Below, piece by piece: positions 23,314-26,831 of a stretch of DNA of 64,000 bases. The stretch lies in contig CAVUPH010000009.1 of assembly GCA_963743305.1 (NCBI GenBank), positions 1 through 64,000 on the forward strand. The letters run 5' to 3'. How positions within the stretch are numbered: the first letter of the stretch is position 1; the number at the start of each line of letters is the position of its first letter. This stretch comes from an uncultured delta proteobacterium (lineage in GTDB: Bacteria > Desulfobacterota > RBG-13-43-22). The notes under the pieces were generated by a model, which did not search any database, was not told where the DNA came from, and saw nothing but the letters and a program-made list of their open reading frames with translations. Position numbers and translations under genes: made by a program.

Positions 23314-23868
23314 ATGTTTTTAATCACTATTCTGGTACTGATCGTTGTCCTGGGTTTCCTGGTAATCGGCCCCTACAACACCCTGGTCCGGGGAAGGAAC
23401 GAGGTCAAGAACGCCTGGAGTTCGATCGACGTCCAGCTCAAGCGGCGCTATGATCTGATTCCCAATTTAATAGAAACGGTTAAGGGATATGCGGGCCACG
23501 AAAAAAAGACCCTGGAGGCGGTGGTCCAGGCAAGGCAGCAGGCCGTTAACTTTAGCGGGGGAGTGGAGGAACGGGCCCAGGTCGAAAATGTCCTGACCTC
23601 GGCACTGCGTTCGCTCCTGGCCGTAGCCGAGGCCTACCCGGACCTCAAGGCCAATCAAAACTTCCTGGCCCTCCAGGAGGAACTGTCCAACACCGAGAAC
23701 AAAATCGGCTTCTCGCGGCAGTACTATAACGACGCCGCCATGCGCTACAGGAACCGGGTGGAGATGTTCCCCAGCAATATCGTTGCCAATATTTTTAGTT
23801 TTCAGGCCGAGCCATTTTTTCAAGTGGAGGCCGCCGCGGAACGCGTGGCTCCTCAAGTGAAATTTTAG
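23314..23868 (+). CDS. lemA: LemA family protein
   Basis: YN.LV..AWSSIDVQLKRRYDLIPNL; EAYPDLKANQNF; SRQYYN; FPSNIVA. Confidence 0.96.
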   Translation: MFLITILVLIVVLGFLVIGPYNTLVRGRNEVKNAWSSIDVQLKRRYDLIPNLIETVKGYAGHEKKTLEAVVQARQQAVNFSGGVEERAQVENVLTSALRSLLAVAEAYPDLKANQNFLALQEELSNTENKIGFSRQYYNDAAMRYRNRVEMFPSNIVANIFSFQAEPFFQVEAAAERVAPQVKF

Positions 23869-23885: not shown

Positions 23886-24155
23886 ATGGTAGAGACGCTG
23901 CAGAATATCGGTTGGTCGGTGATTTTTTCAGTAATCGGGGGCCTGATCGGGATGGCGCTGGTGATCGCCTCATCGCTGATCCTGCCGGCGCTTATCGATC
24001 GCCTGACCCCCAACATCGACGAACACAAGGAAATTGTCCGCGGCAATACCGCGGTGGGGGAATACTACGGGCGAGTCGTGGGCTCCGCCATCCTGGGGGT
24101 GAGCATCGTGATAGCCGCCGCGGTATTGGGCGGGATCCTCGCCGCCTTGCACTAG
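23886..24155 (+). CDS. Small two-TM protein, DUF350-like
   Basis: DRLTPNID..EIVRGNTAVG pattern between two hydrophobic helices. Confidence 0.7.
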   Translation: MVETLQNIGWSVIFSVIGGLIGMALVIASSLILPALIDRLTPNIDEHKEIVRGNTAVGEYYGRVVGSAILGVSIVIAAAVLGGILAALH

Positions 24156-24202
24156 ATTCTTACATCCATTGTTCTGAGAATTTGTCTCGACGAAAGGTGC
24201 CT

Positions 24203-26831
24203 ATGAAACGGCTTCTCGGACTGACGGCGTTGTTTCTCCTTTTGCTCAGTCCCGCCCTCTCCTGGTCCCGAGGCGGGGGCGGCTGCCTGGAAGAGGGCAC
24301 CCCGATTCGGACCCCAAAGGGATCGGTGGCCATTGAAAAGCTGGCGGTGGGCGACCCGGTCTGGAGCATAACCGCCGGCCAACTGCGGGAGGCCAAAGTC
24401 CGGGCGGTTATCCGGGTGGACCCCGAAGAGGTCCTGGAGATATCCGCCGGGGAGACCCGGTTGCGGGTTACCCCCGAACATCCGCTGCTGGTGGCCCCCG
24501 GAGACGTATCGCCAGGCTGGTTTCCTTTTTCCCGGAGAAACGGTTTCCCTGTTCAGGAACGGAGCGCTAAAGGACGAGGCGGTCCGGTCCATTCAACGCC
24601 AACCGGCGAAACGCCCGGCTTATAATCTTTTGGTCAGCCCGGGCGGGACCTTTCTTTCCGGGGATCTGGTCCTGCACAATAAGGGTTGCTTCCTGCCCGA
24701 CAGCCCGATCCTGCGGGCGGACGGCACGGAGACGCTGATCAGCGCCGTGAAACCGGGCGATGCCCTTTGGGCTTTCACGCCGGACGGACACCTGGTACCC
24801 ACCCGCACCCTATCCGTCATTCGCCTCGAAGCGGACGAGTATTTCCTGATGAAAACCGATCGGACCACGCTGCGAGTCACCGGGGAGCATCCCTTTTACA
24901 TCGGCCGGGGGACTTTCAAGACGGTCGAAGCCCTCCAGCCGGGCGACACCGTCCTGGCTTTTGACGGGAAATGGCTGGCCGAACAGCATATTGTCTCCCT
25001 GGAGCGAGTCCGGGAACGGGTCCCGGTCTATAATCTCCAAACCGATCGGCCTCATACCTTTTTCGTCAGCGGGGTGGCTGTCCATAATAAGGGCGGAGGC
25101 TGTTTCCCGGCCGGAACCGGGATTGCCACTCCCCGGGGAGAGCGGTTCATCGAAGAATTGGCTGCCGGAGACGAAGTCTTTTCCGTTGACCCGGAAGGGC
25201 GGACGGTTCGGAGCCGGGTAAAAACCATCCTGGTGAATAAAAGCCCCCTGCTGAAGATAAAGACCGCCGGGGGTTTTCTGCTGGCCACCGAGGACCACCC
25301 GATACGCGTGGGGAAAGATAGGTTTCGTCCGGCAGGGGATCTCCACCCGGGAGAGCAAATCACCCGCTGGAATGAGGGCCGCCTGGCCGCCGAAAGGGTT
25401 CGAGGGATAGATTACGGGCTTAAGGAAGGACTCGTCTTTAATCTCGAAGTTACCGGTCCCCATACCTTCATTGCCGGGGGCGTCGTCGTTCACAATAAGG
25501 GAGGGGGAAGCTTTCGCAGTTCGAGCTCACACTCTTCTTCCTCGAGGAGCGGAAACGCCTCCTGGTTTGAGACGTTGATTTCCTTTATATTTTTCGTGAT
25601 TTTTTTTGTCCTTCTCCTGGTGGTCTTGATCGCCGTCGCCTCCAAGTCTTCCAAGAGAAAGAGCGAAAACCTCGACTTCGTCTACAACCGTAGGCAGATC
25701 GATCCCAAGGCGCAGAAGACCGAGAAACTGCTCGCCTTTCTGAGCCGGCAGGATTCCTCCGTCTCCCCGGAAACGCTGCGCGATCAGGCGAAGGCCACGT
25801 TCCTCCAACTGCAGGAATGCTGGGGTAAAAGGGAATACGGACCCATGGGGGCGCTGCTGGTACCGGACCTCTATACCCAGCACACGGCCCAGCTCCAGGG
25901 CTTGGCCCGGAACCACGAGATCAATCGGATCGACGATCTGACAGTGGAACGAATCGATCTGGTGAATGTCCGCTATACCGAAAAGGGGAATCAACGGGAG
26001 TTCACCGCTCTGATTACCGCTTCGGCCCGGGATTATTATCTGGACGACCGCTCGGGAAAATTCCTCCGGGGCGATCGGACCCCGGCGCGTTTTCAGGAAT
26101 TCTGGACCTTCCAGTGGATGAACGGACGCTGGCTGCTGCGGGAGATCGAGCAGGCGGGGGAAGCGGATATCCTCAAGGATGACAACTTCGCCGAGATGCT
26201 GACCGAAGAAACGCTGAAGGGGATTTACGGGGAAGCGGCTCTCCCTGAAGGGCAGGCGGGACCTTGGCTGGAAAAAGAGGTGGAGCAGAAGGCCGGCCGC
26301 ATCGACCGATTGATCGCCTTTCTATCCCAGACCGACAAGCTCTGGAATCGAAACCGGATGCTCGAACGGGCTCGTCAGGTCTTCCTGGATGTCTACCTGG
26401 CCCGGGAAACCGGCGATCCGGCCCGGGTCGCGGCCGACGACCTCTTTCCAAAGGTGGCCGAGGATTTGAAGACCCAGGTGGCTTACTGGAAGAATGAGGG
26501 CGTCGTCGTCGAATACCGGAATCTTTGTGTGCGCAAGGTAGAACTGCTTCTGGTTCGCAATTACGGGGACAATACCCGGGATGAATATACGGTACGGGTC
26601 AGCGCGCATGCCCAGCGGATGATCCGCAAAGGTGATCAGTCCTTGAGCGCCCAGGACTACGTCACGCCCTTCGAGGAATACTGGACTTTCGGCCGCCTGG
26701 AGGGACAGTGGAAACTGAAGGAAGTATTGCCTCCGGGCCAGGGGAAAAAGGCCGTTGACCTGGAAAACGTGGATGAAGACAGCAGCCCCGGACAGCTCCA
26801 ATGGTACTACCGGCAGCCCCGCGCCCTTTGA
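24203..26831 (+). CDS. Signal peptide + three tandem Hint (BIL/intein-like) domains + TM + two Tim44-like domains; one +1 frameshift near 24500
   Basis: Hint1 24284-24680, Hint2 24687-25088, Hint3 25101-25496, each Cys1, TxxH, (Y/F)NL and terminal HN; Tim44-like FQEFWTF..WLLREI and FEEYWTF..WKLKEV. Confidence 0.88.

Follow-up and report, generated by a model that had tools for sequence, protein, structure and literature searches.

The gene at positions 24203–26831 on the forward strand of a 64,000-nucleotide (nt) stretch from an uncultured delta proteobacterium (assembly GCA_963743305.1, contig CAVUPH010000009.1; hereafter, the whole stretch is called the window) encodes a protein in which three tandem mini Hint domains precede a membrane helix and two Tim44-like domains. 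We describe here the domain identity, fold, topology signals, junction invariance, insertion site and DUF350 partner of this protein and its family. Across the homologues collected, every Hint is preceded by Gly (position −1) and followed by Lys (position +1), and this invariance points to an undescribed, lysine-dependent self-excision outside the cytoplasm. Bacterial intein-like (BIL) domains are already known; what is new is an A-type BIL in a fixed, tandem and apparently periplasmic setting with an invariant +1 Lys.

According to the open reading frame (ORF) listing and its translation, the gene runs from an ATG at 24203 to a stop at 26831. Its parts are, in order, a signal peptide, an R-GGGG segment, the three Hints, a Ser-rich linker, one membrane helix and the two Tim44-like domains. 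With junctions marked by a middle dot, the protein reads MKRLLGLTALFLLLLSPALSWS·RGGGG·C...(Hint 1)...HN·KG·C...(Hint 2)...HN·KGGG·C...(Hint 3)...HN·KGGGSFRSSSS. The 22-residue signal peptide (24203–24268; MKR, a hydrophobic core and SWS), which is predicted to be cleaved, is followed by the N-extein of Hint 1, R-G-G-G-G (24269–24283). Hint 1 (type T1, 24284–24680) carries one extra base at 24503; its N-terminal part matches Hint_2/Vint and TIGR01445, and its C-terminal part lies in the next frame. A Lys-Gly linker (24681–24686) leads to Hint 2 (type T2, 24687–25088, 134 residues), recognized as PT-HINT/Hint by Pfam, and a Lys-Gly-Gly-Gly linker (25089–25100) leads to Hint 3 (type T3, 25101–25496, 132 residues), with matches to Hint, Hint_2 and Intein_splicing. 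The C-extein of Hint 3 (25497–25562), K-GGG-S-F-R plus the Ser-rich linker, begins KGGG-SFRSSSSHSSSSRSGNAS and runs into the hydrophobic transmembrane helix (WFETLISFIFFVIFFVLLLVVLIAVA) and then SKSSKRKS (25563–25640). Tim44-like domain 1 (25740–26153; PF04280, 87.8 bits for the whole protein against a cut-off of 29.6) and domain 2 (26325–26723; a second PF04280 stretch) place the protein in the Tim44-like family (PF04280/COG4395). Over the whole protein, the Pfam matches are Tim44, PT-HINT, Hint, Hint_2 and Intein_splicing, and NCBIfam adds the intein N- and C-terminal splicing regions. By the positive-inside rule, the Hints are predicted to face away from the cytoplasm and the Tim44-like domains to reside in it.

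Translation confirms a junction pattern that an earlier note had read from the DNA letters alone. All three N-junctions are Gly·Cys, with Cys codons at 24284, 24687 and 25101; all three C-junctions are His-Asn·Lys-Gly, with Lys codons at 24681, 25089 and 25497; the exteins between Hints are only 2 and 4 residues long (KG and KGGG); and the interval 24269–25520 spans exactly the Arg of R-GGGG through KGGGSFRS. The three Hints are diverged, with Hint 2 sharing 28% identity with Hint 3 and 33% with Hint 1. T2 of the window is 93% identical to T2 of the homologue P0001, and T3 is 78% identical to its counterpart in the same protein.

The same note had proposed that +1 Lys is under selection, on the strength of these three copies, and had named free variation of the +1 residue among homologues as the outcome that would overturn this. 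We therefore assembled the best 120 of 938 matches to the Hint part together with 118 more from a search with the post-Hint part. A hidden Markov model built from the units then yielded 602 complete Hint units in 237 proteins, with the window's own ORF (P0005) left out. The −1 residue is Gly, the last two residues are His-Asn and the +1 residue is Lys in 602 of 602 units; Arg never occurs at +1 (0/602). Cys1 is present in 601. The sole unit lacking it, residues 162–295 of P0127, has Gly at this position and keeps His-Asn·Lys.

Among the 575 unique units, pairwise identity averages 41% (median 35%), and conservation reaches 99% or more in just these columns: Gly(−1), Cys1, one Gly, the block-B Thr and His, the terminal His and Asn, and Lys(+1). 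We considered conservation at the DNA level as a cause of the repeated HNK-G junction and rejected it, as all synonymous codons are used: across 106 units from 39 genome loci, the +1 Lys is encoded by AAG 76 times and by AAA 30 times, with similar variation in the Asn, His, Gly and Cys codons. Because of this synonymous variation, the junction conservation must act at the protein level. The +1 residue does not vary freely, and the selection proposed for it emerges as strong, leaving Lys as invariant as Cys1, the block-B Thr and His and the terminal His-Asn. Since Cys1, block-B Thr and His, and His-Asn are kept across the units, both junction reactions appear to be under selection in each copy.

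By their catalytic features, the window Hints are assigned to the A-type BIL domains. An N-terminal Cys begins all three; the block-B Thr-x-x-His motif reads TPEH, TGEH and TEDH, with T70 and H73 invariant in a 54-sequence alignment; His-Asn ends each unit; and the family shows the A-type trait of having no Cys, Ser or Thr at +1. The same Lys in all 602 units sets them apart from class 1 inteins, which have Cys, Ser or Thr there. One descriptive BIL trait, location in hypervariable regions of non-conserved proteins (as described in PMC7765530), does not hold here: host and insertion site are conserved across phyla. The units lack a Hog sterol-recognition region, as they measure 131–141 residues and the next unit or the Ser-rich tail begins 2–7 residues later. 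Ubiquitin-like domains between units are likewise absent: Pfam finds none, and all 322 inter-Hint linkers among the homologues consist of K and 1–6 Gly.

Structural comparison agrees with this assignment. Among solved structures, the best sequence match is the Clostridium thermocellum BIL (2LWY, E 3.5e-8), followed by BIL2 of the Tetrahymena BUBL1 locus (6Y75/6TMM, E 5e-5). Hint 2 and its flanks, modelled with AF2 on the 54-sequence alignment, gave a pLDDT of 94 and a pTM of 0.88. In a Foldseek search with this model, 6Y75 BIL2 came top (E 3.2e-11, TM 0.86); 2LWY (TM 0.83) and then mini-inteins and Hedgehog domains followed. There were 67 PDB matches at E ≤ 0.001, and all 50 listed were inteins, BILs or Hedgehog domains, as expected for a HINT fold.

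The relatives of Hint 2 separate the two invariant flanking residues. Hint 2 was searched against 1.84 billion representatives, and the best 150 matches were classed by architecture. Tim44-linked proteins (63) have +1 Lys in 157/157 and −1 Gly in 144/148 units, and fragments of the same kind (36 proteins) in 58/58 and 53/55. The 51 proteins of other architectures have +1 Lys in 60/92 units and −1 Gly in 27/93; their 32 units with another +1 residue are phylogenetically confounded. On these sequences, the +1 Lys is a trait of the Hint clade that is absolutely fixed in the Tim44 family, and the −1 Gly belongs to the tail of the Tim44 host.

Nine of the 51 proteins of other architectures were compared with Pfam: one subtilase combines PKD domains with four Hints, and the others include Big_9/cadherin-like domains, PMP repeats, PSCyt3/PSD2 and arrays made up of Hints alone. 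The subtilase, P0482 (1435 residues; Peptidase_S8), ends in four same-clade Hints with +1 K, T, K and R and a −1 residue other than Gly. Tandem arrays with linkers of 0–3 residues (none, K, KC, RS, KGA or KGW) occur in P0478, P0439, P0432, P0433 and P0486; the units of P0478 abut directly (HN·C), and P0439 has at least seven units.

The origin of the Gly-rich flanks becomes clear from Tim44-like proteins without Hints. The source genome carries one such paralogue of 320 residues (L043:985-1947, contig C15), with a Tim44 domain 27% identical to that of the window protein (E 2e-18). It starts with a signal peptide ending in VLA, followed by RAGGGRSGGFRGSRSFS; the flanks of the Hint array match its mature start, RAGGGRSGGFRGSRS, and it has a single Tim44 domain and no DUF350 neighbour. 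More generally, the mature chain of Hint-less paralogues starts R-A-GGG-R-S-GG-F-R-G-S. Of 120 homologues of the paralogue listed, 100 have an intact N-terminus, and 96 of these show the start A·R[AV]GGG. The residue after RxGGG is R in 71, M in 8, G in 7, S in 6, L in 5, F in 2 and K in 1 of the 100.

Hint-bearing proteins read [SA]W[AGS]·R[GA]GGG·Cys1...His-Asn·K-G(n)-S/F-R-S. Of 165 N-complete Hint homologues, 144 have the R[GA]GGG motif (once ARGGG) ahead of the first Cys1; these are all of the clean cases (144/144), as the remaining 21 are regular-expression artefacts from a Cys in the signal peptide. After the array, homologues always continue with K-G(2-5) and then a Ser/Phe/Arg-rich stretch, and the K-GGG-S-F-R tail of the window resembles the GGFRGSRS of the Hint-less paralogues. 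Aligned by eye, the Hints seem to be inserted between RAGGG and the next basic or variable residue of the paralogue motif. Because Hint-less paralogues start their mature chain with the same motif, the Hints sit inside a conserved Gly-rich tail. The corresponding paralogue position is variable, so the strict +1 Lys is tied to the Hint and was not inherited from the host motif.

Our best reading of these observations, to which we give about an even chance, is periplasmic self-excision in which a Lys amine resolves the Gly thioester and the tail is thereby rejoined. After export, the product would be a type-I inner-membrane protein with the periplasmic end R-GGGG-[Hint T1]-KG-[Hint T2]-KGGG-[Hint T3]-KGGG-S-rich tail, and removal of the signal peptide would free the R-GGGG N-terminus. 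At each Hint, an N-to-S acyl shift would convert the Gly·Cys bond into a Gly thioester, Asn cyclisation would cut the Asn·Lys bond, and the Hint would excise itself. The +1 Lys would then resolve the upstream Gly thioester, through either the α-amine freed by the cut, the route proposed for A-type BILs, or its ε-amine, the one reported to act in BUBL BIL2, and the R-G4, K-G and K-G3 pieces would be stitched onto the K-G3-S tail. The rebuilt Gly/Lys-rich N-terminus would resemble that of the Hint-less paralogues, and the excised Hints would be released into the periplasm.

The cleavages, their order, the ligation and the acting Lys amine are what we infer from conserved sequence. As both catalytic sets are kept in every unit, each Hint would be expected to carry out both junction reactions and to remove itself. 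Resolution by a Lys amine is favoured because the Lys is invariant, the linkers are all-Gly and R-GGGG is conserved; retention of R-GGGG by ligation is favoured because this segment is conserved even though pure cleavage would throw it away. The chemistry that the earlier note invoked also has precedent. According to PMC4031507, A-type BILs can splice; in the proposed route, a thioester forms, Asn cyclises and the amino group set free in this way attacks the thioester. BIL2 of BUBL is reported to form an isopeptide with a Lys ε-amine and to attach the ubiquitin-like domain that precedes it to other proteins, with no need for ATP (PMC8616854).

Several points count against lysine-dependent rejoining. 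BILs lack a +1 nucleophile, and their cleavage products predominate (PMC7664689); reviews describe these products as mostly cleaved and not spliced (PMC7664689, PMC4031507), and in PMC7765530 A-type BILs are stated to be unable to ligate. The +1 Lys also occurs in 60 of 92 same-clade units of other secreted proteins, which largely have a −1 residue other than Gly; because it is frequent in the clade in such contexts, the Lys may serve Asn cyclisation or folding instead. A Lys ε-amine is mostly protonated at neutral pH, and hydrolysis may win in the periplasm. Rebuilding a tail that could be encoded directly offers no obvious benefit. In addition, the gene is frameshifted in the window and may be inactive in its source genome, and all homologues come from metagenome-assembled genomes (MAGs).

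The reported predominance of N- and C-cleaved BIL products would fit a rather unlikely alternative, in which the Hints only cleave. Hydrolysis and Asn cyclisation would release R-G4, KG and KGGG as by-products, shed the Hints and expose K-GGG-S-F-R as the new N-terminus, which would mimic the R-A-GGG start of the paralogues and perhaps provide a timed or conditional maturation. The likeness of K-G(2-5)-S/F-R-S after the Hints to R-A-GGG-R-S-GG-F-R-G-S speaks for such a purpose, and every C-cleavage would leave a basic residue and Gly as the new N-terminus. Simple cleavage, however, leaves unexplained the invariance of Cys1 and block B across the units, as well as the strict conservation of R-GGGG, which would be discarded, and of the all-Gly linkers. 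Nor does it account for a +1 residue that is never Arg, although Arg is the N-terminal residue of the paralogues.

Array architecture bears on what the small exteins might be for. Homologues carry 1 to 6 Hints per protein, and when unit types are assigned by the nearest unit of P0001 the order T1-T2-T3-T4 is fixed across phyla. N-complete proteins comprise T1-T2 (52), T1-T2-T3-T4 (46), T1-T2-T3 (17, the array of the window), T2 alone (11), T2-T4 (8) and a few others. T1 and T2 are joined by KG in 166/166 clean cases and T3 and T4 by KGGG in 87/87; between T2 and T3 the linker ranges from KGG to KGGGGGG.

The earlier note had proposed that outside amines (peptidoglycan, a polyamine or a protein) or cyclisation resolve the Gly thioesters, so that conjugates or small peptides such as KG, KGGG or cyclo(Lys-Gly) would be the function. 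We consider this quite improbable. The constancy of the two linkers above would suit it, as would the ready cyclisation of dipeptidyl thioesters to diketopiperazines. BUBL BIL2, the best structural match, is reported to conjugate its N-extein to Lys residues of other proteins without ATP, and a weak lead towards polyamine transfer is the presence of DUF350 and polyamine genes together in PspA operons (PMC11237479).

These ideas are chemically possible but less economical than rebuilding of the tail. The transferable acyl groups would be 2–5 residues or a whole upstream Hint, with no ubiquitin-like cargo; one-Hint members have no inter-Hint peptide at all; and Hedgehog-type transfer needs no His-Asn, yet His-Asn is conserved. 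Selected small products and acyl transfer to the outside are not supported, and three comparisons argue otherwise. The flanks resemble the mature N-terminus of Hint-less paralogues, which makes an origin from the host tail the simplest account of the linkers; the T2-to-T3 linker is not fixed in length; and the +1 Lys persists in the 60 of 92 units of other architectures, largely away from Gly flanks. The note's analogy with ubiquitin fails in one respect, as no ubiquitin-like domain precedes the Gly.

A further, fairly unlikely possibility is a periplasmic counterpart of BUBL-type splicing, with the ε-amine of the +1 Lys as nucleophile where canonical inteins use Cys, Ser or Thr. The array would then build an isopeptide-branched Gly-Lys chain on the tail of the membrane protein, or would hand Gly-ended pieces to polyamines or peptidoglycan without ATP.

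Copy number changes over short time scales, because the window and its near relative L009 (93% nucleotide identity) differ by one unit and a relative's contig does likewise. L009 has a fourth Hint, 414 nt more, between window positions 25515 and 25580 (L009:7242-7719), presumably through recombination at the repeated HNKGGG junctions, and the contig from run X1 continues KGGG-CLPAGT after 25495. Such fast change, together with the placement of the Hints in a conserved host motif, as is usual for inteins, would be expected of selfish or neutral mini-intein-like passengers that were duplicated in the motif and keep their junctions only for self-removal. We regard this as very improbable. The Hints have no homing endonuclease and an apparently extracytoplasmic location, and unit order and type are fixed across phyla. 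The gene is specifically linked to DUF350, a neighbour that the Hint-less paralogue lacks. Loss of units should be easy, yet we saw no Hint-free double-Tim44 member among the N-complete close homologues and the class and phylum genomes, samples small enough to leave this absence unproven. In the phylum sample of 401 genomes, 12/12 full-length double-Tim44 matches have open frames of at least 736 residues. Twenty-eight matches that at first appeared Hint-less were all N-terminally truncated fragments.

The gene is patchily distributed: 11 of the 21 class genomes and 17 of the 401 in the phylum sample carry it. Homologues come from MAGs labelled Verrucomicrobiota, Planctomycetota, Lentisphaerae, Kiritimatiellia, Elusimicrobia, Nitrospiraceae, Terriglobia, Gammaproteobacteria and others. 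Members on contigs labelled Micrarchaeia archaeon and Candidatus Peribacteria (L034, L038) reflect either a very wide spread or binning contamination.

The extra base in Hint 1 raises the question of whether the window copy is functional. The frame shifts after ...LLVAPG, splitting the gene into ORFs 23912–24625 and 24630–26831. At 24503 the window reads GGA-G-ACG where L009 reads GGA-ACG, and a relative's contig from run X2 likewise lacks one base there. In the four read runs searched for position 24503, we found only short contigs of relatives and no reads of the same strain, the best-matching public run containing 0.27 of the sampled words. The extra G is either an assembly indel or the mark of a very recent inactivation.

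If the extra base were real, the gene of the source genome would be a pseudogene, and its product would be limited to a signal peptide and a truncated piece of Hint 1. We regard this as unlikely, though to be taken seriously: the frameshift is present in the assembly, and the gene seems dispensable, as about half of the genomes of the class lack it. The codons downstream of 24503 are nevertheless undecayed, with all catalytic residues intact and the near-identity of T2 to that of P0001 preserved. The same gene is frameshifted or split at other sites in other MAGs (L009, L006, G003, G004 and G014), and this scatter suggests assembly indel errors rather than repeated decay. An assembly indel is thus the more likely source of the extra G.

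The gene belongs to a small neighbourhood on the same strand. Immediately upstream, at 23886–24155, is a gene for a small DUF350 membrane protein of the YjfL family (PF03994, 28.5 bits, cut-off 26), the only DUF350 gene in the source genome. In 33 of 39 related loci, which span many phyla, a DUF350 gene lies directly upstream; of the six without one, four stop at a contig end and two are distant loci that carry only Hints. DUF350 members have been described in PspA (envelope-stress) operons alongside polyamine-metabolism genes (PMC11237479), a possible hint by analogy at an envelope role of the DUF350/double-Tim44 module. Farther upstream lies a LemA family gene (23314–23868; PF04011, E 5.5e-60). 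LemA is upstream in 9 of the 39 loci, all of deltaproteobacterial type, and downstream in one, and is thus no universal partner.

In the open-access literature searched, which did not include the primary BIL papers, we found no paper joining Tim44 with Hint, intein or intein-like domains or with LemA, no paper on tandem or adjacent bacterial Hint, BIL or intein arrays, and nothing relevant on COG4395/Tim44-like proteins. The purpose of BIL domains has been open since their first description, and the Tim44-linked family offers an unusually clean case: a conserved host, a fixed site, 1–6 copies, exteins of 2–5 residues and a +1 Lys as invariant as the catalytic residues. If this Lys proves to be the nucleophile, the family would represent a new class of splicing, with ligation or conjugation taking place in the periplasm without ATP, and could supply compact parts for protein engineering whose ligation leaves a Gly/Lys scar. 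It also gives a widespread, uncharacterised envelope module, DUF350 with a double Tim44-like protein, a biochemical step that can be put to the test.

The protein combines features of several known systems. With Hint-less bacterial Tim44-like proteins (COG4395, PF04280) it shares the signal peptide, the R-[AG]-GGG start, a Gly/Ser/Arg-rich tail predicted to be periplasmic, one membrane helix and a Tim44-like domain on the predicted cytoplasmic side; the paralogue of its own genome differs in having one Tim44-like domain, no Hints and no DUF350 neighbour. Hedgehog Hog domains have a similar Gly·Cys N-junction, thioester chemistry and HINT fold (1AT0, 6TYY, TM 0.82–0.83), but they possess a sterol-recognition region and make no terminal His-Asn cut, whereas each window unit ends in His-Asn with the next unit 2–4 residues later. 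Class 1 mini-inteins (Ssp/Npu DnaB) resemble the window Hints in fold (TM 0.83–0.85), Cys1, T-x-x-H, His-Asn and insertion in a conserved motif. The window Hints differ from them in being predicted extracytoplasmic, tandem and apparently never lost, and because +1 is Lys and not Cys, Ser or Thr, the canonical branched ester intermediate cannot form.

The closest parallels are two BIL systems. BUBL1 of Tetrahymena thermophila (BIL2: 6Y75, 6TMM), like the window protein, is a polyprotein in which short modules take turns with BIL domains. BUBL is a eukaryotic, cytoplasmic system whose N-extein is a ubiquitin-like domain; the window array, by contrast, has Gly peptides of 2–5 residues as exteins and Lys at +1, and is predicted to be periplasmic. 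A-type BILs (2LWY; PT-HINT, PF07591) share with the window family a mini HINT domain of about 135 residues with Cys1, T-x-x-H and His-Asn, no Cys, Ser or Thr at +1, and a location in exported bacterial proteins. What distinguishes the window family among them is a conserved host, a fixed site with 1–6 tandem copies in a set order of types, linkers made only of K and 1–6 Gly, and an invariant Gly and Lys on either side of every unit.

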